Origin: an uncultured Bdellovibrionales bacterium
GTDB taxonomy: Bacteria > Bdellovibrionota_C > UBA2361 > CAIXSY01
Assembly (NCBI GenBank): GCA_964510065.1
Contig: CAZEAC010000010.1
Coordinates: 2,074 to 66,073, forward strand
Length of the DNA: 64,000 bases
Reading direction: 5' to 3'
Made by a program: the position numbers and the translations under genes. The first letter of the stretch is position 1, and each line of letters begins with the position of its first letter. This document shows positions 10,837 through 63,951 of this stretch, piece by piece. The notes beneath the pieces are model-generated. The model had not been told where the DNA came from and did no database searches. It worked only from the letters and a program-made list of their open reading frames with translations.

Positions 10837-11002
10837 AATAAGCAGGGGGCGCGCATGTAGGGAGTGGTAACTCTAGGATATGGTTACTTGCTGTCACCCC
10901 TCAAAAAGCTCCCTGAGTGGGCCTTTCCCCTTACACAGCAGCAGTGATGTGCTCACTGCTTCGAGAAGGCCGTATAATTACGATAAAAGAAGAATGGTCC
11001 TC

Positions 11003-14499: not shown

Positions 14500-14543
14500 G
14501 GTGAGGTTAAGCCGTGGACCAGCTGCTTTGTCAGAAGTGTAGC

Positions 14544-16067: not shown

Positions 16068-16089
16068 TCGGTTTGTTTTTAGCGAAATT

Positions 16090-16755: not shown

Positions 16756-16972
16756 ATGACTTTTCTGAATGATAATGCAATTTTGCGGCGATGCAAAGTG
16801 AGGACGCAGTGCGGCCACGCCGCAACAATAATATCGAAAGGGCTCCATTCCGGCACGCGCGAGGCAGGGCGCGTGCCTGGCCGGCTAAGCCTCGTAGCAT
16901 GGGAGAAGCAATTCGCTTGGCGCGCTTTCAAAAAAGTAAAAAAATATTGCTGTAAGTTTATACCCTATCGCT

Positions 16973-19366: not shown

Positions 19367-19448
19367 GTAGTCGATCTCCGGTATTGATATTTGCAAGGCG
19401 CCATATGTTGGCTCATAGCGCTGTATACTGTTAGCAGGTAATGTATAC

Positions 19449-19633
19449 TAAGGAACCTCTGAAAAACTATGCATTTCGTCTTCGCTGGCCTTTCGGCGAT
19501 CTTTGCGAGAAAACATGCCGGGAAAATACTCGAAATAGCCCTGCTATTCCTGCGTTTTTCCCGGCATGTTTTCTCGCAAATCTCATCCAAAATTCCAGCA
19601 AATCCAAAACGCCTAGTTTTTCAGAGGTTCCCT
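19449..19633. repeat. nested inverted-repeat element: perfect 25-bp inner IR (TTTGCGAGAAAACATGCCGGGAAAA / TTTTCCCGGCATGTTTTCTCGCAAA, 29-nt spacer) inside a 20-bp outer IR (TAAGGAACCTCTGAAAAACT / AGTTTTTCAGAGGTTCCCTA)
   Basis: Read directly. Lies in the divergent intergenic region between the 807-aa secreted protein gene and cpaB. Confidence 0.8.
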
Positions 19634-46997: not shown

Positions 46998-47873
46998 ATG
47001 ACTACCTCTATTGTTCCCACCTCACGGGTAACAGTTCCGGATATTGTAGCCCGAAAATCTGGCGAAAAAATAAGTGCGCTTACTGCGTACGACTACCTCT
47101 TTGCGAAGCTCGTAGACAGCGCCGGAATCGATATGATTCTCGTCGGCGACTCTGTCGGATCGGTCGTGCAGGGCCATTCTTCGACGCTCCCTGTTACTCT
47201 CGATCAGATTATTTATCACGCGCAATGCGTCGTTCGTGGGGTTTCGCGAGCGCTTGTGGTTGGGGATCTTCCCTTTATGTCATATCAGGTCTCGCCTGAA
47301 AGCGGGCTCGAAGCGGCAGGCAGACTTATAAAAGAAGGTGGTGTTGCCGCGGTGAAACTTGAAGGCGGCGTACCTTTCTCGGCAACGATTCGAAAGATAG
47401 TCGATGCGGAAATTCCCGTGGTTGGACATGTCGGGCTCACGCCGCAATCGATGAACCGCATGGGTGGATTTAAGGTGCAGGGGCGCGAAAAGAGACGCCG
47501 TGGGGTCGATGTGGGTAGCCGTGAGAGAGTTATTGAAGACGCCCTGGCGGTTCAGGAATCCGGAGCGTTTGCGGTGGTGCTTGAGGGAATTCCCGCGGAG
47601 CTCGCGTCCGAAATTACTGAAGAGCTCTACATTCCCACGATTGGTATCGGAGCTGGCGCGCGATGCGACGGACAAATTCTCGTAATGCACGATATGTTGG
47701 GAATCGGTCCTGACGCTCCGCCGCGATTCGTGAAGCAGTACGCCGCGCTCCGCCATGTAATTACCTCGGCGGTTTCCGAATATGTCAAAGAGGTGCGAGG
47801 TGGGGACTTCCCCGAGGAGAAGCATAGCTATCATGCGCCACGCCAGGTTCGGCGGGTTTTGTCGGTAAAGTAG
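46998..47873 (+). CDS. panB: 3-methyl-2-oxobutanoate hydroxymethyltransferase
   Basis: ALTAYDYLFAKLVDSAGIDMILVGDSVGSVVQGH and KLEGG are conserved PanB blocks. Confidence 0.9.
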   Translation: MTTSIVPTSRVTVPDIVARKSGEKISALTAYDYLFAKLVDSAGIDMILVGDSVGSVVQGHSSTLPVTLDQIIYHAQCVVRGVSRALVVGDLPFMSYQVSPESGLEAAGRLIKEGGVAAVKLEGGVPFSATIRKIVDAEIPVVGHVGLTPQSMNRMGGFKVQGREKRRRGVDVGSRERVIEDALAVQESGAFAVVLEGIPAELASEITEELYIPTIGIGAGARCDGQILVMHDMLGIGPDAPPRFVKQYAALRHVITSAVSEYVKEVRGGDFPEEKHSYHAPRQVRRVLSVK

Positions 47874-47882
47874 GGGGACGCC

Positions 47883-48278
47883 ATGGAAAATTTCAGAAGA
47901 GTCCTTCATTCGAAAATTCACCGCGCTACGGTCACTCACGCCGATGTCGATTACGAAGGCAGTGTGACAGTGCCGCCGGAATTGTTGGCGGCCGCCGATA
48001 TTCATGAGTATGAGGCGGTGCATATTTGGAATGTGACTCGAGGAACGAGGCTTGAAACGTACGCGATTACGGGTATTCCAGGCTCGCGCGATATCTGTGT
48101 CAACGGAGCTGCCGCGCATCTGGTAAAGCCTGGTGATATCGTGATTATTGCATGTTTCTCGCATATACCTGAAGATGAGCTGTCGACACATAGGCCGAAG
48201 CTTGTGTTTGTGGACGAAAAAAATCGGCTCAAAGAATCGCGCCCGGAAGTGCCTGGGCCCGCGCTTCTTCGAGTGTAG
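47883..48278 (+). CDS. panD: aspartate 1-decarboxylase (pyruvoyl-dependent)
   Basis: [20 protein letters not shown] (the Gly-Ser self-cleavage site) matches PanD, as does the length. Confidence 0.9.
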
Positions 48279-48299
48279 TGGCTTGCGAAGTACATTATT

Positions 48300-48776
48300 G
48301 TGAAAAAAAGTAACGCCGTGGCCGCAGACGGCATCAAGATTGTCGCCGAGAATCGGAAGGCGCGCGCCTATTTTGAAATTCTTGAGAAGTTCGAGGCCGG
48401 AATTGTACTCACGGGTGCCGAGATAAAATCGGTTCGTGCTGGTGGTATCAGCATTAACGAAGCCTATGTAAAACCCGAGAGTAATTCGGTGTTGCTCCTC
48501 GGCGCGCATGTGCGGCCCTACGCGTTTAGCAATGATCCCGAATATGTGCCGACACGCCCTAGAAAGCTGCTGCTGAGTAAAATGGAGATTAATAAGCTTC
48601 GCGGACGGGTTGAGCAGCAGGGGCTCACCATCGTTCCGCTCAAGTGTTACCTGCGACGTGGTTTTGCTAAGCTGGAAATTGCGCTCGCGCGCGGCAAAAA
48701 CGCCCCCGATAGACGTCAAGATATCAAGCGCCGTGAAGCTGATCGTGAAATCGCGCGGGCTACAAAGCGGCGCTAG
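48300..48776 (+). CDS. smpB: SsrA-binding protein
   Basis: IAENRKARAYFEILEKFEAGIVLTGAEIKS and GAHV.PY are conserved. GTG start. Lies upstream of the tmRNA gene. Confidence 0.9.
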   Translation: MKKSNAVAADGIKIVAENRKARAYFEILEKFEAGIVLTGAEIKSVRAGGISINEAYVKPESNSVLLLGAHVRPYAFSNDPEYVPTRPRKLLLSKMEINKLRGRVEQQGLTIVPLKCYLRRGFAKLEIALARGKNAPDRRQDIKRREADREIARATKRR

Positions 48777-48831
48777 GCGGCGAATATTTTCGGTAATGTA
48801 ACGAGATGAGAATATATGATTTAATGGCCTT

Positions 48832-49290
48832 ATGTCGCGCAAATACTTTCAAAGTACGGTATTTTCATTTCTGCTTTTAACCTCGTGCGCCACGCAGAAG
48901 CTGGTAGGGCCTTCGGAGCTGCTAGTTGACGGTGGTTCGTGCGGCGGATGGAAAGTAATGGCGCCCTCGATTTTGCAGAGGGTAACGCTTTCTGGTACCG
49001 GCACTAATGTCACCGCGAATCTGACCACGGGAGTGAGCATGGTAATTAACTCCGAGGGCGACGGTAGTCTTCGAGCAGTGGGTGCGTACGATTCGATAAA
49101 TCTCTTCGGGCGGTTTAACATGCCTGGAAAGCTTCTCGGCAATTGCCGTGGGCTTGAGGCATACTGCATGCAGTTCGAGGGTGATTTTCTTCTTGGTGAT
49201 GATGGTTCGGGCTACCCATCGGGAACGCGGAAAAAGTATGTGATGACATCGCGCTTCATGGACGAAGAGCAATCGGCGTCTACCATATAA
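48832..49290 (+). CDS. lipoprotein, hypothetical
   Basis: Signal peptide with lipobox LLLTSC. Confidence 0.5.
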   Translation: MSRKYFQSTVFSFLLLTSCATQKLVGPSELLVDGGSCGGWKVMAPSILQRVTLSGTGTNVTANLTTGVSMVINSEGDGSLRAVGAYDSINLFGRFNMPGKLLGNCRGLEAYCMQFEGDFLLGDDGSGYPSGTRKKYVMTSRFMDEEQSASTI

Positions 49291-49369
49291 TTCCGGAAGG
49301 CGTGAACGGCTATGCGCAGTATGGAACGCTGGATCTTTTTGTCGCTGATAAACCGAGGGGGTAATCGCT

Positions 49370-49822
49370 TTGGAATCCGAGAAGGATAGGCCGCAACGTC
49401 ATCCAAAACTTTTTGTCATTCAGCTTCTTACCGGCTGTTTCATAATTTCAATTCTTTTGCTTAATTTTGTCGCCTGGACAGTCGTTTCACGCGCTACGAC
49501 CGCTTCGCCGAATTTTCCTCTGTTCCCACTGCTTTTTGTGGGAGTTGCACTCATTGGTGGATCGTTTCTCCTTCCGCGTGTTCTCTTTCGAGCTAAACAT
49601 GGCGCACATCGCGAAGACATTCTTAACAAAAACTTGCCGGCGTTACTCACAATGCAGATAATAATCCTGGCAATTCGTGAAGCCGGCGCAATCTGTGGAT
49701 TCGTCGCGACGCTCATGAGCGTCGACAGCACCTACATTTATACTCTCTCGGCGCTCGCGGTAGCCGCGATTTTGGCTGATTTCCCGACTTATGATCGGGT
49801 GATGCGCAGAATAAACGGGTAA
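49370..49822 (+). CDS. small membrane protein (4 TM helices), hypothetical
   Basis: Hydrophobic helices. Confidence 0.4.
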   Translation: MESEKDRPQRHPKLFVIQLLTGCFIISILLLNFVAWTVVSRATTASPNFPLFPLLFVGVALIGGSFLLPRVLFRAKHGAHREDILNKNLPALLTMQIIILAIREAGAICGFVATLMSVDSTYIYTLSALAVAAILADFPTYDRVMRRING

Positions 49823-49888: not shown

Positions 49889-50296
49889 GGGGGTGTCATG
49901 GTATCGACGGGATTTATGAGATCTATGTGAGCACGCCTAGGATCCGCAGGCCTAGTAAAAAAGGCGGAGAAACCTAAATGCAAACTCTTTTGATTTTGCG
50001 CAGAATGAAGAGCTGGCTATTGCCGCTTAACGTTCTGTAGATCGGTCCTCGAAAGACGACTGATCGGTTCTTATGCGACGCGCTTGTAATTGCATAAGGG
50101 CTTAAACTATTCGAGCTGGTCGCTGCAGCCGTTTGCCCTGCAGGGATGAGAAAATAGGCAGACTCGCTTGACGGAGATTCCGTAACAGTGAATCCAGATA
50201 GCTAAATTCGTCGCAAGGCGAAAAGTGCTGTTACTAAGCGTGTAGTGCATGTAGATTGAGACTTCTCGGACGCGGGTTCGACTCCCGCCACCTCCA
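49889..50296 (+). ncRNA. ssrA: tmRNA (ssrA); tag-like reading frame 49980-50030 encodes A-N-S-F-D-F-A-Q-N-E-E-L-A-I-A-A-stop
   Basis: 5' end GGGGGUGUCAUGGUAUCGACGGGAUUU. GUAAAAAAGGC precedes the resume codon. Tag ends in LAIAA-UAA. 3' end GGACGCGGGUUCGACUCCCGCCACCUCCA (T-arm and acceptor stem, CCA not encoded). Lies downstream of smpB. Confidence 0.9.
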
Positions 50297-50660
50297 GTTT
50301 TCCCATTCGGCATTCGAGCCCAGGGGCGGCCGCCCCTCTCGCTCGCTATGGCTCGCTTCTCCCCGCATCTCGGTTCGAATTGGTTCCCACCAGGTCCAGA
50401 CTTCGCCCCTCTGGGGCTTCGTCTGGCATGCCAGCTTTGCCGTGAAGCCTGTCGTCCCGAAGCTTTAGCGAAGGGCGACTATTCCCTTCGGCATTCTCGA
50501 GCCCAGGGGGCTCCGTCCCTTCTCGCTGCTGATTGCGGCTTCACCGCGATGACTCGAATTGGTTGCTGCCGCGTCAATGTTTTTCGCTTGGCACTTGGGC
50601 CCTTAGCGCGATGTAATTCGTCGCTCCGGCGGGTTCTTCTGGATTTACGGGCATCTCGCC
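50297..50660. repeat. two degenerate ~90-180-bp direct repeats resembling decayed copies of the ssrA 3' end (TCTCGGTTCGAATTGGTTCCCACC; GACTCGAATTGGTTGCTGCC)
   Basis: The blocks TTCCCATTCGGCATTCGAGCCCAGGGGC...CGGTTCGAATTGGTTCCCACC (50300-50392) and TTCCCTTCGGCATTCTCGAGCCCAGGGGG...GACTCGAATTGGTTGCTGCC (50483-50572) align at roughly 75% identity. They resemble the tmRNA T-arm/acceptor. Confidence 0.6.
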
Positions 50661-50803
50661 CACTTTGTGACGAATCCTGATGAGATTTGCGGGCTTAGGA
50701 CGTTGATCCTTCAGAATCGAATTTGCATTGTGAGAGAATGTTGATCGCTTGGATAGCTTCAATTATCAGGCATTTTTTTTAGTCGATTCTTGAAAAGCAC
50801 CTT

Positions 50804-51955
50804 TCATCTCGACTTTTGAGGTAGGAATGCAAAAACGATTTCTCTCCGAGCGCGTACCCCATTTTCAGTGCTTTCTATAAGCTGCATCTTTTTCAATGCC
50901 CCCAAATCGCGAACAAGAGTTTTTCTTGTTTTGCCTGCATAGGCTGCTGCAATCCGAGGAGAGATTTCTGGAATTTTTGCTACGGGGACGGGTGTAAAAT
51001 CCATAGCTAGTGCAAGATCGCGTCTGCGCTTTTCAGATTTGGATGTCTTCGCACCAAATAGCTCGTGTATAAGATTTCTCCAGGTCACATCAAATAATTG
51101 GTACTGAATCAATTTAAGCTGTTCCTTTAGCCCGTCAACAAAGCCTCTGATTGCATAATCGATAAACTGGATTGTGTCGCCACCAGATTGGCTTATGTAG
51201 TCGAGCTGACGATAATATTCATTACGAGTTTGGTTGTAGTGATTGCTTAATAGGTGTGCGGCAGCTGTAGGAACTTTTCCATTCAGAAGTAGCTGAAATT
51301 CAATAAGTCGTCCCGTGCGTCCATTCCCGTCTCCAAAGGGGTGTATAAGCTCAAAATACGCATGCGCCACTATTGCCTTCAGTATCCACATTCCTGTGTC
51401 GTATCCAGAGATTTGATTGAAGTCTGTAGCCAGCCATTTGCATAGTCCCTCCAGAAGATATTCGCAGTCTTCGAATGGCACGGCTCGGTATCGTCCGACA
51501 CCAACGGAATTCTTTCTGAATTCACCGGGTACGACGCCTTCTTCAACAGCCAACCCCTCAAGAACCATTTTATTGTATTCTCGAATCCGATCTATCGTCA
51601 CGGCTGATGGATTGTCACCGATCGCATCGTCCTTGATCTTGTTGCAAGCTTTTAGAATGTTATCGATTTCTTGACCGAGGTATTCCTGTGATGGTGGCAG
51701 TTCGAGTTTTTTTTCAATTCGTTGAATGACCTGTTCTTCTGACAGAGTGTTCCCCTCAATGGCAGTTGTAGCTCTTACGCCTTTCGCCAAGTAAAGGCTG
51801 TGAAGGTGATTTGCGATGACGGGGTGTAAGGGGGTGTTTGCAATGTGTTGGCACTTGGATTGTGCCTCGCCTAAACCAAGCCAAAGTGAAGGTACTGGTT
51901 TTCGCAAATCTAGGTTAAATTTTAACCAAGGATGTGTCTCTAAATATTTCCTCAA
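50804..51955 (-). CDS. Fic-family protein (AMPylase-type, with inhibitory helix motif and C-terminal wHTH-like domain)
   Basis: Fic active-site motif HPFGDGNGRTGR. Upstream inhibitory motif TAIEGNT ((S/T)xxxE(G/N)). Followed by a low-GC upstream region. Confidence 0.85.
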   Translation of the reverse strand: MRKYLETHPWLKFNLDLRKPVPSLWLGLGEAQSKCQHIANTPLHPVIANHLHSLYLAKGVRATTAIEGNTLSEEQVIQRIEKKLELPPSQEYLGQEIDNILKACNKIKDDAIGDNPSAVTIDRIREYNKMVLEGLAVEEGVVPGEFRKNSVGVGRYRAVPFEDCEYLLEGLCKWLATDFNQISGYDTGMWILKAIVAHAYFELIHPFGDGNGRTGRLIEFQLLLNGKVPTAAAHLLSNHYNQTRNEYYRQLDYISQSGGDTIQFIDYAIRGFVDGLKEQLKLIQYQLFDVTWRNLIHELFGAKTSKSEKRRRDLALAMDFTPVPVAKIPEISPRIAAAYAGKTRKTLVRDLGALKKMQLIESTENGVRARREIVFAFLPQKSR

Positions 51956-52215
51956 ATTTGTCCCTAGCGTATGTGTGCATAATATAGTGAATACAATATA
52001 TTATAGGATTATACGATGCAAAATGTCCAATAGAATGTCCTATGTATTGGGCGTCTAATTTGGCGCTGTTGTTTGATTCAATATTTCAGGTACTTAACCT
52101 GGACTTCTGTGATTACTCATAAAAGGCAGGGAAGGAATTCCCGGGGTTAATGGGTAATTGCGGACTTTTCACAGTTTCCTGCTGCGAATATCCAAGCACT
52201 CGAGACTTCGAGGTG

Positions 52216-52551
52216 CTATTTTCCAAACTTCTCAACGTAATCTTGCCGCACCGGAAAAAATGCATCGATGATTTTACAGTCGGTGAGCGCTTTGCCCGAA
52301 TGAATTGCATTCGAGGGAATTACTGCTACCGCTCCGGCATTGAGAACTCTCGACTCGCCGTTAATCGTGAGCTCAAACTCGCCTTCGATTATATTCGCGA
52401 GCTGCTCATGAACGTGCGAATGCTCGGGAAGTATGGCCCCTTTGGAGATGCTCCAGTGGGCAAGTGTAATGTTTTCCCCGTGCACGAACTTTGCACGAAG
52501 ACCGGGGAGTACTTCGATATCCTTTACTTTTGTAAGATCTATAAATGTCAA
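52216..52551 (-). CDS. cupin-2 domain protein
   Basis: G(X)5HXH(X)3,4E-like motif LPEHSHVHEQ...G and the second cupin motif G...P...H. 111 aa. Confidence 0.65.
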   Translation of the reverse strand: MTFIDLTKVKDIEVLPGLRAKFVHGENITLAHWSISKGAILPEHSHVHEQLANIIEGEFELTINGESRVLNAGAVAVIPSNAIHSGKALTDCKIIDAFFPVRQDYVEKFGK

Positions 52552-52623
52552 AATGTCCTTAACTTTTTCAGAACTACTTCTGAGTGCTTAAGAATAATCG
52601 CTTCATAGGTTATAATAATAAAT

Positions 52624-53520
52624 TTAAAAGATCGAGCATGTTGAAATGCGAAGCAGCTGGGTGGAGTGATCGGTCATGAGTATGTTGACGCCGTCGCCAA
52701 AGAGGCTTCTCCAATAAATTGGCCTGTCATAAACTGAGCCGGCGATATTCACGAGCGTTCGAATGCCGTGTTTCCGGATAGCACTGACCGCTTCGGGTGA
52801 ATACCACTTCTCAAGTTCTATAACGATCGGGTCTAAGTCTATTGATTCAGCAAGCTTGTCAGGTGAGCGTACTCGCATAAGGAGCGCGATATCGAAATAT
52901 TTATCCCTAAGAATTTTTCCGCATTGAGTACTCTTGCACTGTACAAGCACCCTGGCCTGATTATTGGTCGCACGAACCAGATCCAAGACTTGAGCGATTG
53001 CGTCGGGACTTTCATCCTTTAAATCTAGCTCAAGAAGTGTATTAAATGGCTTTACCGCTTCGAGCGCTTCGCGGAGGGTCGGAATCTTCTCGTCGTCTCG
53101 GCCTGCAAGTTCCACAATCTTTATCTCTTGATCGTTGAGCGAGTCGATTCTTCTTCCTTCGAATGTTCCTGGAGTTAAGGTGTTCCCACACTGAACCGTT
53201 GCGTCATGAAATAGAAGCGCGGTTCGTTCTCTGTTTAGACGCACATCGACTTCTAAAAGCGGAATGTGCAGTGAGGCGAGCTCTCGAATTCCGGAGAGAC
53301 TGTTGTCGGCGAAATGCTCTGTCCTTGCGCGATGAGCTGAGGGCCACGCGATTTCAACTGATCTATCTCGTAACGTTTCATGAATGGGGCGAGCTTGCGG
53401 CCATCGCGAGGAGCTCGCCGAAGGCGGACATTCGATGGTGGCATCGCGAATAGCCGTACAGCCGTTTAGCACCAACAGAATAAGGCAGAGGCCAAATTTT
53501 ATTGCAAAATTTATCGGCAT
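52624..53520 (-). CDS. glycerophosphodiester phosphodiesterase-family lipoprotein
   Basis: HRARTEHFADNSLSGIRELASLHIPLLEVDVRLNRERTALLFHDATV matches the GDPD catalytic block (HR...EN(T/S)...E.D...T.D...HD). Lipobox LVLNGC. Confidence 0.7.
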   Translation of the reverse strand: MPINFAIKFGLCLILLVLNGCTAIRDATIECPPSASSSRWPQARPIHETLRDRSVEIAWPSAHRARTEHFADNSLSGIRELASLHIPLLEVDVRLNRERTALLFHDATVQCGNTLTPGTFEGRRIDSLNDQEIKIVELAGRDDEKIPTLREALEAVKPFNTLLELDLKDESPDAIAQVLDLVRATNNQARVLVQCKSTQCGKILRDKYFDIALLMRVRSPDKLAESIDLDPIVIELEKWYSPEAVSAIRKHGIRTLVNIAGSVYDRPIYWRSLFGDGVNILMTDHSTQLLRISTCSIF

Positions 53521-53573
53521 AAGAATGCTGCGATGTAATTCAGATAGTGGATAGGATCGGCTCAGATTTGTTC

Positions 53574-56390
53574 CTATTCGCGATTATCGCCTGCTGTCGG
53601 ACTCAGCCTTTTAAGCAGTGATTCGAACAATGGTACCAACTTTTCCAGCGCGACGGCAATTCGCTCGGCGCTGTGTTCGAGGTCCGGACCACTTGCTTGC
53701 ACGGGAAGTGCGGTGAGGCGCTTTATAGTGCCCACGGCTTGAAGCAGCTCTTCAAAGCTTAAGGAGACAGCCGGGTTGGCCTTCGCTTTAATAAGTTCGG
53801 CCTTCTTCGCGCAGCAAAGGTTCGTAAGCGCGACTTTAATTGGTAAAGGGTTTAGGCCCAGGCATTCATTGGCGAGTTTCTTAAATTCCTCACTCTGCGC
53901 ATTACCGGGAAGCGGCGATTCGAGACTTTCAAGCATCTTGGAGATGATTACCTTTACATCCTCAATCTGCGGCCCTTTCAATTCAATGTGAATACCAAAA
54001 CGACCAAGCCGAAGTGCGGCGCGATCGACTAAGTCGATATGGTTAGTCGCCGCCATGAAGATTATCTCAGGATGCTTGGTTACTTCACGCTCGATGACAC
54101 GCAACATCGCGTTGGTAAGCGCGATCTGTTCGGGTGAGTTCTTTACAAGCTGCCGTTCAATCATCTCTCCTTCGATTTCGTCGAAGAAAAGAATGCAAGC
54201 CGGAGAGTTATCTTTGCGCATTTTTCCGGCGGCTTCTTCGATCTTTGTTTGAATAAATTTGGCGAGCTGCCGTTCCATCCGCTCCTCGGTCTCGGAGAGC
54301 AGCGCTTTATTTTGCCCCCACGACTCGGAGCTTCGTTTCGCGTCCTGATAAGCGGTGGACATCTCTTCTCGGGAGATACGCAAGATTGGCATACCCATGG
54401 TGTTACCGAGACATTGCACAAGAAATGTCTTGCCAACGCCGGGATCGCCGTAAAGAATAATTCCGTTCAGGAATACCTCTCCGGGACTCCTACCGCTCCA
54501 TGCGCTTTTGTTCTCGAGAAGCAATACGTGCTTTTCAATAAGCTCCGTGAGCGTGTTGACTATATCCTCATAGCCCCAATAGTCGCTACGATCGACGGAG
54601 TAGAGCCGCGTTACCGAACGTCGCGTATCTTCGACGTACTTAGCAACGGGCGAGTTCGAAGCCGTGAGATTCGCGGTTAAACTTCGCGAAAGATCCGAAA
54701 TATCATCCAGTCTTTGTAGCAAACTCTTTACGTTTCTTCGGACGAACTCATCTTTGGAGAGTACCTGCATCGATAACAGGACCCCGGCGAGGCGGGCATA
54801 CGGAACCTCTTTCGTCTCTTCCTTGCAGGCCTTAATTTCGTCATCGATAAGCCGTGCTATCTGTACGACATCGCGCTGAGCCATAAGTATGCGAATGCCG
54901 GTGGTCGTGCGGAGCAGTGGTTCGAGGCCTGTTTGCCGCATTGCTGACTCAAGTCGCTTGGCATTTTCCGGTAAGCCGAAAATGAGGTCTTCTACTGCCC
55001 ACGCGAGTGCCCGAATGTTTTCGGGTGATTCGAAATAATTTTCCGTTTTGTAGGTACTGCCTTGGAGCTTTCGAATCTTTCCCGTAAGCAGTTTTCCAGC
55101 GGCTTCGCGAATTGCTGGCTCCGAATGGGCAAGAATCGCCGAAACTAATTCCGCGTCGTTTTCGACGGGAATTATCTTTGAAAACTCAGGTGCAATCCGT
55201 CTTCGAAGTGCGTCCATCTCATGAAATGGATCGCGAGGTATGGAGATAAACGCGCTATCAAGCGTTGAACGGAGGCCATGGAAAATGCCTAAGAGCTCGG
55301 CCTGCATTTCAGGAGTTCGAAGGACTGCCTCAAGCTCTTGCGGTGCTACCCGCCACGCTGGAGCCGAACCGCTAAGCATATCGGTAGCAATTAGCTCGTG
55401 AAGATCGTACGTGTCAGGCTTTGTTGGATCGATTGCACGAGTTCCGAAAGAGATCTGAAGAAGCTTTGCGACTAGTTTCAGATCGCCGAGCAGTCCATCC
55501 AGTACTGCAGGCTTAAGCGATACTGAAAGTTGAGTTTCAGCAACGACAGTGTCGAGCTGGATTGGGTCGACATCGGTAATCGTAGCGGCGATCGTATAAA
55601 GCTTCTTGGAGAGCTCTTCAATTTGCTGCCCTATGGTTTCAGCGCGAGCACGGCATTCGTCGGCGGACTTTCGAAGACTACTGCCGTTCTCTTTGTCATT
55701 TTGCGCCTGCAGCTCAAAACTCGACGCTTTTGTCAGTTCGCTCGCTTTACTCTGCTGCTTTGATTTTAGCTCTTTAAAATGTGGAAGAAACTCCTCTTTG
55801 CGCGAACGAGAAAGCGCTAAATACGCCTCCGGCCCGGGAAGGTTCTCCATCTGGCTGTGGAGCCGAATGAATGGCGATCCGTAGCGGTACCACTCGCTGA
55901 GTGCGATAGTATCTCGATTGGCGCGAAGATAGAGCGAATGCAGCAGATCTTCCTCGCGCGATACCTTAGCCGGCTGGCGCTCGGTGAGCGCCACCTTCTT
56001 GCAGTCAACATGGTGCATAGCAATTGGAAGAAGCTCTAGAGAAACGGCTAAATCGCGTCGCGGATCGCGAGATCCAAAACGATTCACTGTCTCTAGAAAT
56101 TTTCCAAGCGCAATAAAGCCGCCGGTAGAGACCCGCAGTGCGTCAATAAATTCCTGAGCGTTGACCGATTTTGCTCGGAGGCCTGTGCCACGCGAGATAT
56201 CAATAGTTTCGTGAAGCGGTTGTCCGCGTACATATTTTGAGAGAAGTTCAGCAAGCTGTCGCAGCTCGCGAATTGGTGAAACTCGATCAATCGGTGGCAC
56301 GCGAGGTGCAGTTTTTACTGGGCTCGATGCAGGTGATGCGCCGCCACCTCTTGTACTAGCTTCATGGCCAAAGGCACGAGATTCAAGCAT
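53574..56390 (-). CDS. orphan classical-AAA ATPase with a ~640-aa predicted alpha-helical N-terminal region
   Basis: Walker A ILYGDPGVGKTF. Walker B ILFFDEIE. Second region of homology ATNHIDLVDRAALRLGRFGIHIEL (classical AAA clade). Large insert between Walker A and Walker B. Confidence 0.8.
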   Translation of the reverse strand: MLESRAFGHEASTRGGGASPASSPVKTAPRVPPIDRVSPIRELRQLAELLSKYVRGQPLHETIDISRGTGLRAKSVNAQEFIDALRVSTGGFIALGKFLETVNRFGSRDPRRDLAVSLELLPIAMHHVDCKKVALTERQPAKVSREEDLLHSLYLRANRDTIALSEWYRYGSPFIRLHSQMENLPGPEAYLALSRSRKEEFLPHFKELKSKQQSKASELTKASSFELQAQNDKENGSSLRKSADECRARAETIGQQIEELSKKLYTIAATITDVDPIQLDTVVAETQLSVSLKPAVLDGLLGDLKLVAKLLQISFGTRAIDPTKPDTYDLHELIATDMLSGSAPAWRVAPQELEAVLRTPEMQAELLGIFHGLRSTLDSAFISIPRDPFHEMDALRRRIAPEFSKIIPVENDAELVSAILAHSEPAIREAAGKLLTGKIRKLQGSTYKTENYFESPENIRALAWAVEDLIFGLPENAKRLESAMRQTGLEPLLRTTTGIRILMAQRDVVQIARLIDDEIKACKEETKEVPYARLAGVLLSMQVLSKDEFVRRNVKSLLQRLDDISDLSRSLTANLTASNSPVAKYVEDTRRSVTRLYSVDRSDYWGYEDIVNTLTELIEKHVLLLENKSAWSGRSPGEVFLNGIILYGDPGVGKTFLVQCLGNTMGMPILRISREEMSTAYQDAKRSSESWGQNKALLSETEERMERQLAKFIQTKIEEAAGKMRKDNSPACILFFDEIEGEMIERQLVKNSPEQIALTNAMLRVIEREVTKHPEIIFMAATNHIDLVDRAALRLGRFGIHIELKGPQIEDVKVIISKMLESLESPLPGNAQSEEFKKLANECLGLNPLPIKVALTNLCCAKKAELIKAKANPAVSLSFEELLQAVGTIKRLTALPVQASGPDLEHSAERIAVALEKLVPLFESLLKRLSPTAGDNRE

Positions 56391-56531
56391 TTTCCGTCCT
56401 CCTCACACAGCAGTCGCGCGAACAAAATAGAGCGCTCGAGTGCCCAATAGGCGCATTATAAACCCGCGATCTGGGGCAACCGAGTATATTTTGACATTAA
56501 GAAATTAAGCGTTATCGACGACATACTGAAT

Positions 56532-56951
56532 ATGAGCGAGATTCTACTCATTGATGACTCCGAAGACTATCGTGAAATTATTGGAACCATTCTGCTTGAT
56601 GCCGGCTATGTAGTTTCCGAGGCACGCTGTCCAGACGAGGCTTTTGGGCTGCTTTTTGGAATGAAGTTTGATCTTATCCTTTGTGATCTGCACATGCCAT
56701 TTACCCTTGATAGGCATATGCCAGAGTTTCCCTATTCAGTTGAAGTAGGGGTTCAAACAATTGAACAGCTGCAGAGCGCGCTTCCAAAAACTCCGATTAT
56801 CGCGATTACCGCATCGATGCCCTCTGACCGCGAGACGCTGCGTGACCGAATTGAAGTGGTGCCGATATTACGAAAGCCGTTTCCGGCAGACACCCTTATC
56901 CAGGCAGTAGAGTGGGCTTTACGTGATGATCCACGGGAAAGGATGCATTAA
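56532..56951 (+). CDS. stand-alone response-regulator receiver (CheY-like) domain protein
   Basis: ILLIDDSEDY...DLILCDLHMP with the phospho-acceptor Asp context. 139 aa. Confidence 0.75.
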   Translation: MSEILLIDDSEDYREIIGTILLDAGYVVSEARCPDEAFGLLFGMKFDLILCDLHMPFTLDRHMPEFPYSVEVGVQTIEQLQSALPKTPIIAITASMPSDRETLRDRIEVVPILRKPFPADTLIQAVEWALRDDPRERMH

Positions 56952-57020: not shown

Positions 57021-58379
57021 TTAAACCGCACCATCGGGCGGTAGTAATGGCACTGTCTCCCAGCCGCTTAATTCCCAAGAAAAGCCGATCTTCATTCCAG
57101 AGAACGCGCGCTGGCCGTCCAGGAAGAAAAGAAGGCTCAACATTAGCAAAACAAGAAATAATGCCCCTTGGAACGAAGCCCCGTAGCCGTGCCACGCGCC
57201 TGCGAGCCGAGGCATGAGAAAGAAGTAAAGCGAGACGAACCAATATGGCGAGTAAAGAAAAAATTCACGCCTGTGCCCAAAAAAAAGAATAAGGAGAAAA
57301 AAAACTGCAAAAATTGTAAGGAAAACGTAGGATTGGTAGATTCGCCGTACACTGAGACTCGGCCGCGCAATCAAACTACTCGCTAATAACCACGCCCAAA
57401 GCCATAATGTTCCGCCCTGCACAATTTCAGTGAAAGTCTGGCCGTAAAGCGGTGCCTGCAGGAGTGTACCTATGGTTCGATTTTTGTAGTCGAGCGGGTT
57501 CAAAACTGGGCCGAAAATGCTTCCGATAAAGACCGCGTATATTCGATCGAGAAACTCAGTGAGCCCGTGTGGCCAATACCAGTATTGATGATAAAATCGA
57601 ATGCCTGATTTTATGGAGGTTTGGTGGAAGAAGATCGGAATTTCTGGCCAAAGAAATGTCTGCAAATAGCCAAGTACTACAAGAAGTAGTGCGAGCAGTG
57701 AGGAAAAAAAAGCCAGCGCGCGAATACTAGCGACAAAGCTCTGACCAGAGCTTAGGCGAGAAAGTATAAAAAGAAATAGCGTAAGTGGAATTGAAAAGAT
57801 TAAAACGCCGCAGGCAGGTAGTGCTGCCAATGCCTGAAGCCACCAGCGGTTTTTCTTATCGAAAAGACTGAAGCAAAATAGTACGAGAAATGCCATGGCG
57901 TAGAGGTGGGTTTCGGGAACTGCTGAGAAGAAAATGATCGGGGGGGAGGCAAGCAGCGGTAGAGTAAACGCGAGATTTGTGCTCCAGCCGACGTTTTGCA
58001 GGGAGAGAAGATAGCAAAAAGCCGCCACGATCAGAGCGGCAGGGAACGCCAGAATAATTGAAAATGAGAGTTTCTCATTTCCCGTGAGCAGAGACATTAG
58101 CTTAAAGGGCGGGTGAACCATCAGCGGAAAAAGTGGGTGAGCTCGGATCCGATCGTAGGTTTCTTCGATTGAGCCACGAAAGGGTAGAGCCCGAATCTGA
58201 GCTTCGACCTTCCCTGTGTCGGCACCGATAAGCCAGTCATGCAGTGGTGACCAGGGTAGCTCCGATAGTCGAAAGCTGCTTGCAAGCGCTACCAGAAATG
58301 ACGCAAGGAAGACTAATAAAAGAGGCAGCCCGCGCTTAATAGTAAAATCCCGCGCCTCCGCCTTCACCTCCGACACCAT
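57021..58379 (-). CDS. polytopic membrane protein (more than 10 TM helices), hypothetical; last gene of the flp-like operon
   Basis: Hydrophobicity. 44-bp overlap with the upstream TadE-like gene. Confidence 0.45.
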   Translation of the reverse strand: MVSEVKAEARDFTIKRGLPLLLVFLASFLVALASSFRLSELPWSPLHDWLIGADTGKVEAQIRALPFRGSIEETYDRIRAHPLFPLMVHPPFKLMSLLTGNEKLSFSIILAFPAALIVAAFCYLLSLQNVGWSTNLAFTLPLLASPPIIFFSAVPETHLYAMAFLVLFCFSLFDKKNRWWLQALAALPACGVLIFSIPLTLFLFILSRLSSGQSFVASIRALAFFSSLLALLLVVLGYLQTFLWPEIPIFFHQTSIKSGIRFYHQYWYWPHGLTEFLDRIYAVFIGSIFGPVLNPLDYKNRTIGTLLQAPLYGQTFTEIVQGGTLWLWAWLLASSLIARPSLSVRRIYQSYVFLTIFAVFFLLILFFGHRREFFLYSPYWFVSLYFFLMPRLAGAWHGYGASFQGALFLVLLMLSLLFFLDGQRAFSGMKIGFSWELSGWETVPLLPPDGAV

Positions 58380-59079
58380 ACGCGGCCTGTGAGAGACGGG
58401 TGGACATTACCCCGCAAAGGTCATAATGCCCGGGAAGGTCAGGCATAATCACTACCCCCCAGGCGCGCCGGTCAGGCTGGGTACAATCAATTTTTACCAG
58501 CTGTTTGAACTTGGTCTTACAGCCTCCTACGTCGCGCTTAAATAAGGCGATAAGATCATCACAGCCTCTCGACGTAAGTATGTCGGTTCCATTACGCATG
58601 GCGTATGCGCCTGTTCCTTCGGCAAGCGCAAACAGTGGCGGCTCCGGCGGATTAAGATTCCACTGAGTACGATCGACCGGGGCATTAAGTCCTCCGGGAC
58701 AAAGATTTGAAATATCGTCAATCTGTACAAGAAATGAACAGACCCCTACTTTCAGGTAGGTATTATACGAGACTCGATTGCTTAACTTAAAGAGCTCCCT
58801 TTCGGCCAAAGTAGGCGAGAGTAGAATCCGTCCGCCTCTGTTCGGATCAAAGTCAAAAACTATCGGCTCAGGCCCAATTGCTGCGACGAGATCCATTCCC
58901 TGTTCAAGATCGATGGCCAAAATCCGCGAGCGCAATTTCGGGTAGATAAATAGATAGCCGAGCAAAAGAATTACTAAGAATCCTGAAAGGATGAGCGCAG
59001 CCTCAATAAGTGCAACTCCTCCAGGCTTTACTGAGCTACTACCGCGAAAGCGCGTTTTTCTTATTATCCTCATCAGCAT
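58336..59079 (-). CDS. TadE/TadF-like pseudopilin (247 aa)
   Basis: N-terminal PGGVALIEAALILSGFLVILLLG. Confidence 0.5.
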   Translation of the reverse strand: MLMRIIRKTRFRGSSSVKPGGVALIEAALILSGFLVILLLGYLFIYPKLRSRILAIDLEQGMDLVAAIGPEPIVFDFDPNRGGRILLSPTLAERELFKLSNRVSYNTYLKVGVCSFLVQIDDISNLCPGGLNAPVDRTQWNLNPPEPPLFALAEGTGAYAMRNGTDILTSRGCDDLIALFKRDVGGCKTKFKQLVKIDCTQPDRRAWGVVIMPDLPGHYDLCGVMSTRLSQAAYGVGGEGGGAGFYY

Positions 59080-60047: not shown

Positions 60048-60311
60048 CTAAATACACTCCTCGGGCGAAAGAAAGCCCCGCCCGTCAGTACACGGACCCA
60101 TTGGACCGAGCGGTGTTCCAGTATACAGTGGCGTGGCCCCCTGTGGTTGCGAGGCAGCGTCTAAAGACTGGCTCCCCCGTCTTTCAAATGCCCCGCCTAA
60201 GAAATTACTTACCCCCATAAGCGCAACGAGGAGAATTGAGAGACCAAGTACATACTCGACAAGGGTTGCCCCGGTCGCGCATTGCTTATGGTTCCGCCAG
60301 GATCTGGTCAT
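60048..60311 (-). CDS. flp: Flp-family prepilin
   Basis: ATGATLVEYVLGLSILLVALMG matches the Flp motif G/(A/T)T.IEY.L..(A/S)LIA..., with a short charged leader. The C-terminal extension is longer than a typical Flp. Confidence 0.6.
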   Translation of the reverse strand: MTRSWRNHKQCATGATLVEYVLGLSILLVALMGVSNFLGGAFERRGSQSLDAASQPQGATPLYTGTPLGPMGPCTDGRGFLSPEECI

Positions 60312-62923
60312 AGCTTCGGCTCAAATGAGAACAATCGCTCCTCGATAAGTGATTTTACAAAGCTTGAGACGGTGACCCTTGTTGCGCACACGCCACTCGC
60401 GGGAAGACCATCAAGATGTCCAATGAAGTCTTTATAGAACTGATTTGAATCTCCACTACCACCACAGGAAGCCCCGGCCCCAGTCATAGTATCTGCCCAT
60501 GGGCTAATTACATAGAGACGGTTTCGGTAGGGTGCTCTAGGGCTCACCGAACTTGCCAGAGGATCTATTCCAAAGAGACAGCGGACTCGATCTACTGCAT
60601 CGCCATCGCAGTTAGCGGTTCCGGCATCAAGCGCGTCTGTCGGCGTCATCGGAATATAGATGACAGTTACCGGAAAAATACCCTGAGTCAGCTCCGGGTT
60701 GTTTATCCGAAGATCGCCGACATAGGCCAGTAAATTATGTTGATGAGGGGGGCGGTGAAGAATGATTACAGTCGGGGCATTTCTATCGAGCCGGTATAAA
60801 TTCGTTACGGTCTGGTTGCCACCGAAAGGGAATTCGGGCTCGTTGGCGTAGGTAGCAGGCCCGGGAGGTTCCGCCGGCCAAACCGTGAGCGGGAATAGCC
60901 CTGGCGGTGCGTAAAAGAAGGGATGTGGCTGGTTTGGTGCGCCAAAGTTATTTGGCAATCGACGATGATTAGCGAGAAATGAGCCGAAGTCGGGAAGCAG
61001 ATCGTTGTCCCCGCCGGGCTTTTGGCAAGGCCAGCCGGGAAAAGCTTCATTCAGAGGATGATAGCCTACGGGACAGGATTGGATCGATCCAATTATCGCC
61101 GCGACCTCCGGAGCGGTAAGGCCTCGGGAGGTATTATTGGTTTCGTCGTTAAGATCGGTGCTGTGTGGATCCACATTGCTGTTTGGCCAGGGTCTTGGCC
61201 CCTGCTCCCAGGGCTGACCGGGAGCGAAGGGTATATTTCTAAGCTTCGGGTTATAGGCAAACCCTGCCGGGTCAAACGGATCGTTACCAGGCAATATGAA
61301 TTGTGGCCTATCGATCCCATTTCGGTCATCTATGCCATTGTCATCTGGATCGAACCCGGAGTAGAGCTGATAGCAGATCCTTAGCTGCTCGGCGATAAAC
61401 TGCTGATGCTGGTCGCTTAGATTGTAGAGGTTCGCGTTCCCGTTTCCATCTCGCCAGGGGTTTATCGGACCATCCTTATTCTGGACACTCCACGCGTCGA
61501 AGTGTCCATCGATACTGCCAGTGACCGGGTAATCCTCTCGTGAACTATTGTAGTATACGTAAGGCAGCTGATACTGCGGCGCGGCAAGATCATCTCCTAG
61601 CAGTGAATCAACAATCTTTACAGGTTTATTTTGTCCCCAGGTCGAGCTGTAATAATCAGTGTTCGGTGATCTTCGGTTTGCCGGGTTTACTACGGCGAGA
61701 TCGGTTGAGTACCTGGTAAGAGAAGATCGCATAAGATACTCTAGCAATCCGCTTACAATCAGGTTTCTTACAAATATAGTAGGATTAAGGCAGGCCGCCA
61801 TGTGCGACCAAAGCGGGTCTTCACTGCCCCATCCTGAAATATGCATATAATCAAAGTAGCCACCGAGTTCATCACCTGCATCCGCAGGTGGAGTTCCATT
61901 ATCTACCGCATAGCCGCCGGGAGAGATGTCAAATTCAGTTGCTGGCTTTTTGTGATTGCCGGGATCGCCTATAAAGTGAGTGCTAAAAAGAGAACCATAT
62001 TCTCCAAGGGTAGTTAAGCGGAGGAGGCTATATTTATCTAAATACTTCTTGGTCTCTACTCCAAGAGCTCCCTCATTTGGTTCCCACCAAGGGAAATTTG
62101 CTGGGCCGGGAATTGGCGTCGTCATCTGAGGTGCCACCAAGATCTTAATTCCCATCGGCCCCTGCGGGGCTCCACCAGCGGTAAGCGGAATCTCGCCACG
62201 AGGTCTGCGCCAGAAAGCTGATTTAGCCGAGATAATTCTTGGCCCGAAAAAAATCGTTGAGTACTCCGCAACCGCTTCGCAGGCAACTGCCGCGCCGACT
62301 AGTGGGTTAGGAAAATTAGGAGGAGTTTCGGGGCAGGCGCCACCACCTGCTGTTTGCGGGGATACACAGCCGGTTGAGACCAAGTTGCCGCTCCAAAAGT
62401 TGTTAGGAAAGCCACCGCTCGGTGCGTTGAAATCAGTGGTGTCGTAAACATACTCGCATGTTCCAACAGCTCCAACATCACAGCTGGTAATGTTACATAT
62501 CCCACTCGCGCAGCCGCTGAGCAGTCCCGCTGCATTTGCTGTGAAATTGGCCTCAAGGTATCCCGGATCAAATACTGGGGCATACACCCGCGCATGGGTG
62601 ATGGTAAGATTTCGCTGACGCGGCGCAGCCGCCCAGGCATTTACCTGGTCGCGAAAGCCAACGACAACTTCGCGCTGGAAAAAAGGATTGTAAGAGACTG
62701 TCCTACAACGTTCATCAAGATCCCTTCGAAAGCCGGTTTCAGCGTGTTTGGTAAGGAGTAGATCAACTCCGAGCGCGCTTATCACTATGCTGAAAATCGC
62801 GCCCATTACCGCGATAAGCGGAATCACGACACCGGCGTCAGAGCGGAGCCGCTTAGAAAATCGTGGCAATTTATTGGGAATGCCCATATTCCTTAGATGC
62901 AGTTTTGAAAGCACAATGCGCAA
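60308..62923 (-). CDS. giant TadG-like / pilus-tip-like secreted protein (871 aa), first gene of the flp-like operon
   Basis: N-terminal RSDAGVVIPLIAVMGAIFSIVISALGVD (TadE/G-like hydrophobic N-terminus). Asn/Asp/Pro/Gly-rich body with many DPxxD/NG motifs. ATGA coupling to flp. Confidence 0.5.
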   Translation of the reverse strand: MRIVLSKLHLRNMGIPNKLPRFSKRLRSDAGVVIPLIAVMGAIFSIVISALGVDLLLTKHAETGFRRDLDERCRTVSYNPFFQREVVVGFRDQVNAWAAAPRQRNLTITHARVYAPVFDPGYLEANFTANAAGLLSGCASGICNITSCDVGAVGTCEYVYDTTDFNAPSGGFPNNFWSGNLVSTGCVSPQTAGGGACPETPPNFPNPLVGAAVACEAVAEYSTIFFGPRIISAKSAFWRRPRGEIPLTAGGAPQGPMGIKILVAPQMTTPIPGPANFPWWEPNEGALGVETKKYLDKYSLLRLTTLGEYGSLFSTHFIGDPGNHKKPATEFDISPGGYAVDNGTPPADAGDELGGYFDYMHISGWGSEDPLWSHMAACLNPTIFVRNLIVSGLLEYLMRSSLTRYSTDLAVVNPANRRSPNTDYYSSTWGQNKPVKIVDSLLGDDLAAPQYQLPYVYYNSSREDYPVTGSIDGHFDAWSVQNKDGPINPWRDGNGNANLYNLSDQHQQFIAEQLRICYQLYSGFDPDDNGIDDRNGIDRPQFILPGNDPFDPAGFAYNPKLRNIPFAPGQPWEQGPRPWPNSNVDPHSTDLNDETNNTSRGLTAPEVAAIIGSIQSCPVGYHPLNEAFPGWPCQKPGGDNDLLPDFGSFLANHRRLPNNFGAPNQPHPFFYAPPGLFPLTVWPAEPPGPATYANEPEFPFGGNQTVTNLYRLDRNAPTVIILHRPPHQHNLLAYVGDLRINNPELTQGIFPVTVIYIPMTPTDALDAGTANCDGDAVDRVRCLFGIDPLASSVSPRAPYRNRLYVISPWADTMTGAGASCGGSGDSNQFYKDFIGHLDGLPASGVCATRVTVSSFVKSLIEERLFSFEPKL

Positions 62924-63071: not shown

Positions 63072-63142
63072 AAACCCGTGACGGTCCCACATGTCCCTAC
63101 TTTTCTGAGAAAGTAGGGACATGTGGGACCGTCACGGGTTTT
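63072..63142. repeat. perfect 32-bp-arm palindrome (AAACCCGTGACGGTCCCACATGTCCCTACTTT-ctgag-AAAGTAGGGACATGTGGGACCGTCACGGGTTT)
   Basis: Read directly. Overlaps the stop codon of the 63097-63951 gene and lies upstream of the flp-like operon promoter region. Confidence 0.85.
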
Positions 63143-63951
63143 AGAAAATCACCGCGCGCGCTTTGATCTTGCATATCGAAAATATCCACACCACTTTTAA
63201 CAAAGTATGCTGCGCTGCCGTCAGCCCAATACTGCGTGGTAATCTCGCGCCAGCCTCCGAACTTGAATTGCCAGCTGCTAGTCTCTGAAAAGGGAAACCA
63301 GGGGCTCCAATTTCTTTCGCCATCATCAGAAATTCGAAAAAATTCGGCGCCTTTTGCTCGATGGTGGAAGGTCGCCTTTCGTTTGGCAATCGGTGTGCGT
63401 GACGAGGTTGCCCCAAGATCAACCATCGTATAGTCGATTATGTGGTCAAAGTTAATATCACGATTGAAGATAACGTTGCCCTTGGTTCCACTTCGAATCC
63501 GAGAAGAGAACTCCGAGAATAGTGCTCGGCCGTCAAGTGACTGAGCTCCCTTCAAAATCATAATCCGATTGATTCCTTCGCGAAGTGCAGTAGAGAATAA
63601 AAAGGAGGTCGCCCCATCCTCACTCTTTAGTCGGTCATTAGTAAGCGCTTTACCGTTAATGGTGATTGAGTGCGCGAGCGAACTTATGTTCATAGCTCGG
63701 TTGAATCTTAGCTTCACCACAATATCTCCCGACGGAACAGCCGAGTCATGCGGCGGATCAACCGAAAGAACGTATGGATCGAGCTCTCTATAGATTCCTT
63801 TTGGTACGAATATCTTCACCCCGTAGCCGGGGATTCCAATGACAACTTTTCTATCGTTGCCTACCTGCAGCGATTCGCGCGCATCGAGCGCGTTAACATA
63901 GCTTGCACTTCCGATACCCAAGGTGCGCGCCATGCTGAAGCTAGAAGTCAC
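63097..63951 (-). CDS. hypothetical protein (at least 284 aa; may extend beyond the window)
   Basis: ORF. No recognised motif. Confidence 0.4.
   Translation of the reverse strand: MTSSFSMARTLGIGSASYVNALDARESLQVGNDRKVVIGIPGYGVKIFVPKGIYRELDPYVLSVDPPHDSAVPSGDIVVKLRFNRAMNISSLAHSITINGKALTNDRLKSEDGATSFLFSTALREGINRIMILKGAQSLDGRALFSEFSSRIRSGTKGNVIFNRDINFDHIIDYTMVDLGATSSRTPIAKRKATFHHRAKGAEFFRISDDGERNWSPWFPFSETSSWQFKFGGWREITTQYWADGSAAYFVKSGVDIFDMQDQSARGDFLKPVTVPHVPTFSEK

Follow-up and report, generated by a model that had tools for sequence, protein, structure and literature searches.

Within a 64,000-nt stretch of DNA from an uncultured Bdellovibrionales bacterium, which we analysed at its full length and refer to as the window, the tmRNA gene ssrA is followed by a block of five genes encoding a Fic protein, a cupin, a GDPD-family phosphodiesterase, a 938-aa AAA ATPase and a single-domain response-regulator receiver (REC). 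An earlier reading of the letters without database searches (the sequence-only reading) had described the region from 50.3 to 56.9 kb as an old, domesticated island inserted at ssrA, in which Fic, AAA and REC might form a module. We consider it probable that the region is instead a hotspot at ssrA that bears two integration scars, together with a single mobile SoFic-like Fic cassette and unrelated resident genes. An ssrA hotspot of this kind is already known; the arrangement is ordinary and does not amount to a multi-gene system that is new. Our account is built on the anatomy of the region, the composition of its genes, their homology and the lack of co-occurrence among their homologues. All five genes were found with Pfam (Fic, E = 1.2e-13; AAA, E = 1.2e-21; Response_reg, E = 4.6e-16), and four of them (Fic, cupin, GDPD and AAA) lie on the minus strand as had been stated, but REC lies on the plus strand and is divergent from AAA. 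The statement that the region lacks an integrase also held, in that no integrase or recombinase Pfam domain was detected in the ORFs scanned from 42 to 64 kb, among which those at 57021-58379, 58336-59079, 60308-62923 and 63097-63951 gave no Pfam match of any kind.

The scars lie directly after ssrA (49889-50296, plus strand), which was located by ARAGORN, by Rfam (RF00023, 140.4 bits) and by alignment to the ssrA of locus L091, the nearest relative that keeps ssrA beside smpB. Two units of about 95 nt follow on the plus strand. [quoted passage not shown] The second, R2 (50482-50578), is a more decayed copy of R1, with the motif TCGAATTGGTT at 50554-50564 and the direct repeat TGCTGCCGCGTCAAT at 50564-50578. 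The two units are clearly homologous (local alignment score 62, against 17.9 ± 2.7 for shuffled sequences), and since the spacers between them are not repeated, simple tandem duplication is excluded.

An unanchored local alignment of the ssrA 3' end with the downstream DNA gave a score of 16, against 16.3 ± 2.4 for shuffles, and this score was reached by 684 of 1000 shuffled sequences. However, when the register was set by the shared CGAATTGG and the next 15 nt were compared with the terminal 15 nt of ssrA (TCCCGCCACCTCCAG), R1 matched at 12/15 positions (P = 6e-5) and R2 at 9/15 (P = 0.018). In L091, where the motif TCGGTWCGAATTGG is present twice just 3' of ssrA, the corresponding figures were 13/15 for copy a (P = 3e-5 to 3e-4) and 9/15 for copy b (P = 0.02), and the offset from motif to repeat is the same in three of the four copies of the two genomes. 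The flanks themselves are alike: window 50368-50408 and L091 11517-11557 share 83% identity over 41 nt (E = 2.7e-7), and an exact 16-mer is common to R1 and L091 11613-11628. Given the motif-anchored comparison and the second genome, we judge the resemblance of the repeats to the ssrA 3' end to be real, despite the chance-level plain alignment. At the level of sequence it runs from the T-loop's middle to the acceptor end, so that the description of R1 and R2 as two degenerate, decayed copies of the ssrA T-arm and acceptor was right as to direct repeats of the ssrA 3' end but went too far in claiming the whole T-arm.

The combination of motif and ssrA 3'-end copy, found with the same architecture in L091, agrees with the earlier proposal of a scar left by integrase-mediated insertion, and the designation of R1 and R2 as putative attR-type scars, with ssrA used as an integration site, is supported. 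We propose that ssrA would have served as a landing site for a lineage-specific family of integrative elements, with recombination taking place around the T-loop, and that two integration events would have left the two scars of about 95 nt, each made of an element right end that terminates in TCGGTWCGAATTGG and then the last 15 nt or so of ssrA in a decaying copy. The attP or attL site of the parent element would accordingly be expected to read TCGGTWCGAATTGG and then TTCCCGCCACCTCCA. No match to a parent element was found in the viral contigs searched. Beyond single chance 10-mers, the scar motif was not found elsewhere in the window or in more than 90 other loci, and the end of ssrA, taken as a 23-mer or a 15-mer, has no other copy in the window. 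An ORF at 50348-50680 on the plus strand overlies the scars and has no family match, and we reject it as a gene.

A possibility that we take seriously, while holding it to be on the unlikely side, is that R1 and R2 are not passive scars at all, but miniature non-autonomous elements that have kept their att sites, resembling cis-mobilisable elements (CIMEs) or miniature inverted-repeat transposable elements (MITEs), or else a selected cis-element of the ssrA 3' flank. A motif of 14-16 nt that is conserved, and present twice per genome, between organisms whose SmpB proteins are only 65% identical is hard to reconcile with neutral decay; the unrepeated spacers, which speak against simple tandem duplication, suit a mini-element as well, and cis-mobilisable elements that retain attL and attR have been discussed (PMC3146451). 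On the other hand, folding revealed no significant RNA structure in the repeats (z -0.5 to -2.1), and Rfam returned nothing below E = 1 in them, tmRNA being the only family at gathering scores across the window. Moreover, the direct repeats show decay, at 9/15 in two copies, the viral contigs searched hold no copies, and the sample is of two genomes only.

The composition of the block separates Fic from its neighbours. We compared 51 ORFs of the window, treated as genes, by GC content, by the z-score of GC at third codon positions (GC3) and by the z-score of the synonymous-codon log-likelihood. Fic is the sole outlier in the block and the most deviant of all 51 (GC 0.447, GC3 z -2.7, codon-usage z -3.66), whereas the cupin, GDPD, AAA and REC genes are typical of the window, with GC3 and codon-usage z-scores between -1.5 and +0.4. 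A low-GC stretch ahead of the gene block, as the sequence-only reading had reported, is real (50750-53000, at 0.42-0.46 against 0.503 for the window) but is essentially the Fic gene with its AT-rich flanks and not the whole block. Likewise, a shift in codon usage between 50.3 and 56.9 kb is there, but for Fic only.

The Fic gene (50804-51955, minus strand) encodes a predicted class II, N-terminally auto-inhibited AMPylase of 383 aa. It carries both the active site HxFx(D/E)GNGRxxR, as HPFGDGNGRTGR at residues 205-216, and the N-terminal inhibitory motif (S/T)xxxE(G/N), as TTAIEG at residues 63-68, which bears out its earlier description as an auto-inhibited Fic. The PADLOC model for SoFic (PDLC03963) matches it over residues 48-371 (model positions 49-345 of 361; E = 3.1e-57, 192.6 bits), and matches in the PDB to SoFic and EcSofic cover the catalytic core only (E about 1e-8). 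By these comparisons, and by a score far below the cutoff of the NCBIfam SoFic equivalog, the protein is a member of the broad SoFic-type class II family and not an orthologue of SoFic.

Homologues of this Fic are widespread. More than 7800 proteins were found (E < 1e-10; 55-76% identity), including proteins from metagenome-assembled genomes annotated as Chloroflexota, Thermodesulfobacteriota and Proteobacteria; the best match of SmpB in a scan of species-representative genomes, by comparison, was 53%. Temperate phages of Gordonia also bear full-length homologues (identity 37% across 97% of the length; E = 2e-64), and one occurs in an IMG/VR contig. Three genomic contexts were compared. In L081, whose homologue is 76% identical to the window protein, Fic stands beside a type III/flagellar export cluster; in the second context (L082-84) it is flanked, in L082, by genes for cyanophycin on one side and riboflavin on the other, with a tRNA-Leu 91 nt away; and in the third (L085-87) it sits in a variable region with transposase, AIPR and CHAT genes. 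AAA, REC, GDPD and cupin neighbours were absent from all three, and the Fic homologues of L081, L082 and L085 are AT-shifted relative to their flanks.

What is conserved with Fic is its upstream region. DNA homology between the window and L081 covers the Fic ORF and about 95 nt upstream of it (52050 to 50862) and stops abruptly beyond. This upstream DNA contains a candidate promoter and operator (52000-52050, minus strand) with 11/12 matches to the sigma-70 consensus, in which GGACAT (52040-52035) precedes TGGACAT (52029-52023), the latter coinciding with the -35 element, and TATAAT (52005-52000). The GGACAT-N5-TGGACAT boxes are invariant upstream of Fic in four unrelated loci, including L081 (9906-10000), L082 and L085. 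A third GGACA box occurs at the ribosome-binding position. On the far side of the promoter, a terminator-like hairpin with a T-run after the cupin gene (52129-52142, minus strand; a consensus scan only) would separate the genes for AAA, GDPD and cupin from Fic. Repeats that bound Fic were not found. Downstream of the gene, the one small-ORF candidate (62 codons from a TTG start, 50574-50762, minus strand) has no other support, and L081 has no room for a small antitoxin gene at this position.

On the basis of its composition, its unrelated contexts, its homologues in phages and the abrupt end of the conserved upstream DNA, we read Fic as foreign and self-contained, probably a horizontally acquired single-gene cassette that brought its own promoter. 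It is from such sequence patterns that we infer its acquisition history, a role in defence, autoregulation and the operon structure of its neighbours. The N-terminal inhibitory helix (TTAIEG, Glu67) would keep ATP from binding productively at HPFGDGNGRTGR; once this inhibition is lifted by some trigger, phage infection for example, the enzyme would AMPylate host targets and so cause growth arrest. The invariant GGACAT boxes that overlap the -35 element suggest autoregulation by the C-terminal domain of Fic, which may bind them.

It is unlikely, in our opinion, that Fic is resident and not acquired, its low GC and odd codon usage having arisen from constraints intrinsic to the family or from low expression. 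The family is AT-shifted in each host that we looked at, the closest homologue (that of L081) might come from a related organism, and flanking repeats are lacking. However, the context of Fic is different at each locus looked at, homologues travel on phages, the gene adjoins ssrA here and a tRNA-Leu in L082, and the conserved promoter region ends abruptly upstream, all of which speak against a resident gene.

Fic, even as an acquired cassette, does not make an island of the block as a whole. The two scars occupy the interval from ssrA to Fic and bound segments that are each shorter than 200 nt, and beyond Fic, AAA and REC the window has no further copy of either the motif or the ssrA 3' end. 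Since both scars are proximal to Fic and no distal repeat is present, the scars do not delimit the gene block.

In the window, smpB (48300-48776) is preceded by panB (46998-47873) and panD (47883-48278), all three identified with Pfam. L091, in which SmpB, PanB and PanD are 65%, 60% and 62% identical to those of the window, has the order panB-panD-smpB, followed further on by an AAA homologue and ssrA. The closest SmpB relatives with long contigs, L096 (72%) and L097 (68%), keep fabF-nth-SseB-panB-panD-smpB as in the window, after which come a HisRS-like gene in L096 and, in L097, an 823-aa protein and a 1976-aa NACHT-like protein (13655-19585); no ssrA was found in the 10 kb after smpB in L097, or in the approximately 1.9 kb between smpB and the contig end in L096. 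Synteny with the window breaks directly after smpB in all four related loci. Thus, for the question whether smpB-ssrA is followed by conserved genes elsewhere, panB-panD-smpB is shared but the flank after smpB differs in all sampled relatives, and a break at this distance fits an island and ordinary rearrangement alike. Defence-type genes occur in this flank in relatives: in addition to the NACHT-like protein of L097, a type I restriction R subunit (HsdR; HSDR_N/ResIII) lies right after the ssrA scars of L091 (12013-13137).

We return to the old, domesticated five-gene island of the sequence-only reading, in which the whole of 50.3-56.9 kb would have entered at ssrA, lost its integrase and distal repeat, and carried a cargo that is host-like in composition except for Fic. 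The block does lie directly 3' of ssrA with integration scars present, synteny with relatives does stop at smpB, the AAA family is rare and patchy, and the HsdR gene of L091 indicates that the flank is variable in the lineage. Nevertheless, we regard a single island as improbable. Its scars are proximal only and a distal copy of the ssrA repeat or motif is nowhere in the window; GC3 and codon usage are native in four of the five genes; the AAA homologue of L091 lies between smpB and ssrA, a position not produced by integration at the ssrA 3' end; and Fic is set apart by its own promoter and a terminator-like site.

Our preferred account, a hotspot with two scars, one Fic cassette and unrelated resident genes, has evidence weighing against it as well. 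Fic stands outside the scar-bounded segments, and its link to ssrA-targeted integration is circumstantial. Its assignment to SoFic rests on a broad HMM, and against the NCBIfam SoFic equivalog (NF046030) it scored 49 bits, the cutoff being 550 bits. Its low GC could be a family-intrinsic property, and the typical composition of the other genes would also fit an ancient island, AAA included, that has become host-like in composition. Promoter and terminator were both called from consensus matches alone. The linkage of AAA to ssrA rests on two genomes and needs a rearrangement, given that in L091 the AAA gene is upstream of ssrA and on the same strand. Finally, a break in synteny after smpB is also expected of an old variable island region, and the comparison of this site extends to relatives no closer than 72% in SmpB identity.

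The AAA ATPase is encoded at 53574-56390 on the minus strand. Residues 1-630 form a predicted alpha-helical N-domain, for which no recognisable relative of known structure was found, and residues 640-900 or so a classical-clade AAA module (Pfam AAA at 644-804), whose best sequence and fold matches are p97, VAT and Rix7. A word-indexed search of 5.8 billion proteins returned the protein itself and weak FtsH-like matches only, whereas an exhaustive HMMER search with residues 1-630 recovered 27 distant representatives among 1.84 billion proteins, most of them 840-920 aa in length and of the same architecture. In an alignment of 23 members, K654, E738, N783, R794 and R797 are invariant and D737 nearly so, and the family-invariant motifs comprise Walker A (GDPGVGKT), Walker B (FFDEIE), the sensor-1 Asn and the arginines of the second region of homology. 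The aromatic-hydrophobic-Gly motif of pore loop 1 is not conserved in this alignment after ISREEM (672-677), and a variable helical insertion of about 45 residues (in the model, approximately 674-727) separates ISREEM from Walker B. Ahead of the AAA module stands DYWG (602-606), a motif that is near-invariant. While PADLOC matched Fic to SoFic, for the ATPase it gave only generic AAA-domain matches (IetA and TRIP13; E = 1e-14 to 1e-13) and no partner genes; given that the match is limited to the AAA domain and that the partner genes are absent, we reject the protein as an IetA or TRIP13 defence ATPase.

Six contexts of AAA homologues, from the approximately 27 representatives, were compared (L091; L088; L092; L093/L094; L089/L090; L095), the short locus L095 being the single match from a metagenome scan with a six-sequence AAA alignment. 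In L091 the order is smpB, a CLIPPER-domain gene (minus strand), AAA (plus strand), ssrA and HsdR, and in L093/L094, L089/L090 and L095 the homologue stands amid housekeeping genes. None of the six has Fic, REC, GDPD or cupin genes nearby. In two of the six, the homologue is beside a giant flagellin of about 630 aa with the layout Flagellin_N ... FG-GAP ... Flagellin_C (L088 12918-14834; L092 5623-7503). In L095 (1653-4185) it is split into ORFs of 513 and 265 aa, either as a frameshifted pseudogene or through an assembly error. The presence of an AAA homologue beside ssrA in L091, which shares panB-panD-smpB with the window, is suggestive of AAA being a resident of this neighbourhood, and no more than suggestive because gene order and strand differ in L091. 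We propose that the protein would be an ATPase of the classical clade, restricted to its lineage, whose ATPase motifs are intact and whose helical N-domain is specific to the family. That it is a new lineage-restricted machine, with a 630-residue helical N-domain without structural precedent and no canonical pore loop, whose family members adjoin either ssrA (window and L091) or giant flagellins (L088 and L092), and which is possibly controlled in this genome by the divergent receiver, is a speculative idea that we rate as very doubtful.

The remaining genes of the block are unremarkable in composition. The Cupin_2 protein (111 aa; 52216-52551, minus strand) and the GDPD-family phosphodiesterase (298 aa; 52624-53520, minus strand) were both identified with Pfam and are native-like; the latter has an N-terminal signal with a lipobox-like LNGC at residues 18-21, in keeping with its earlier description as a lipoprotein. 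The AAA, GDPD and cupin genes are probably co-transcribed. REC (139 aa; 56532-56951, plus strand) covers the full Response_reg model and has the expected residues (DD at 8-9, D52 in LCDLHMP, T93 in ITAS and K115 in RKPF); it is transcribed away from AAA, at a distance of 141 bp, and towards the next gene, with which it converges. We believe that the AAA-GDPD-cupin genes and the divergent orphan REC would be residents of the chromosome, and nothing in the contexts compared ties them to Fic or to one another.

CpdR and RssB are examples of single-domain receivers that serve AAA+ machines as adaptors. This precedent, the physical closeness of the genes, the match of Fic to a defence model and the weak matches of the AAA domain to the IetA and TRIP13 models could be taken to favour a signalling-controlled toxin or defence module, in which REC would, for example, control an AAA remodeller by which Fic is activated or neutralised, but we consider such a module highly improbable, as the combination is absent from all six AAA contexts and all three Fic contexts, the genes form three separate putative transcription units in differing orientations, Fic is unlike the others in composition and moves as a promoter-plus-ORF cassette, SoFic has been described as a stand-alone protein (10.1101/2022.05.11.491447), and none of the partner genes, IetS, HORMA or CD-NTase, is present.

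Several further observations concern ssrA and its upstream side. The window tmRNA encodes the tag ANSFDFAQNEELAIAA. Its gene does not encode the terminal CCA (…CCTCCA|GTT, 50294-50299), which is encoded by the L091 gene (…CCTCCACCA). Ahead of the latter, its own 5' end is duplicated in part (10745-11060), as a 31-nt copy at 10930-10960 and 11030-11060 and a 58-nt repeat at 10747-10804 and 10982-11039, and these account for the over-long tmRNA call of ARAGORN in L091 (10931-11422). The piece between the duplications bears a weak resemblance to the 5' part of R1, at E = 0.28 only. Between smpB and ssrA in the window are two small ORFs (48832-49822), one for a lipoprotein-like protein of 152 aa and one for a membrane protein of 150 aa, with no family match and no counterpart in L091, L096 or L097. 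A 520-codon ORF with a TTG start (47280-48842, minus strand) is antisense to panB, panD and smpB and is almost certainly spurious.

These results remove a false lead, as the Fic-AAA-REC block is not to be treated as a unit in screens for defence systems or effectors. They add a further example of an ssrA hotspot, whose flank gathers att scars along with defence genes carried singly, a SoFic-like one here and HsdR in a relative. The parts that deserve a further look are the AAA family and the Fic operator boxes only: a widespread Fic subfamily that moves as a cassette with conserved GGACAT boxes offers a testable handle on its regulation, and a rare AAA family with an uncharacterised N-domain could merit structural or genetic study in its own right.

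Compared with known systems, the AAA ATPase shares Walker A and B, sensor 1 and the second-region-of-homology arginines with classical-clade proteins (Cdc48/p97/VAT, NVL/Rix7, AFG2, PAN and FtsH). Unlike these, it has a single AAA module, no conserved pore loop 1 but an insertion of about 45 residues in its place, and no fused protease or other effector domain. Its similarity to the ATPases of IetAS and of CBASS with TRIP13/HORMA is a weak HMM similarity within the AAA domain only, whereas its neighbours are GDPD, cupin and REC genes and its N-domain is unrelated.

Millman et al. (bioRxiv 10.1101/2022.05.11.491447) described SoFic as a stand-alone Fic protein that defends against phages, and EcSofic of E. 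coli has been described as a toxic AMPylase (PMC12249575). The window Fic is similarly a stand-alone protein of about 380 aa with the canonical Fic motif and the class II inhibitory motif, and its contexts differ among L081, L082-84 and L085-87, with no dependence on a conserved neighbour. However, it is only distantly related to the S. oneidensis and E. coli proteins, and its putative role in defence is suggested by likeness. EcSofic is paired with AS1, an antitoxin of about 47 aa encoded directly downstream, while no convincing AS1-like gene lies downstream of the window Fic. With class II Fic AMPylases (FICD/HYPE, SoFic and similar; Engel et al., 2012, as cited) it has in common the HxFx(D/E)GNGRxxR motif and the N-terminal (S/T)xxxE(G/N) helix; its conserved GGACAT boxes upstream may point to autoregulation through DNA binding.

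The closest parallel for the region is offered by the tandem ssrA genomic islands of Dehalococcoides, which are bounded by 20-bp ssrA repeats with crossover in the T-loop (PMC3146451). Unlike those islands, the window has no integrase or integration module, its scar-bounded segments are empty (<200 nt), its repeats are heavily decayed (12/15 and 9/15), and the genes of interest lie outside the repeats. The two also have features in common. The site is directly 3' of ssrA, which ends at 50296 and is followed by the scars (50300-50578) and by Fic from 50804; the partial copies of the ssrA 3' end are in tandem, each after a motif, conserved at the element end, that fails to align with ssrA, which places the crossover in the T-loop; and a variable gene of the defence type adjoins the repeats.

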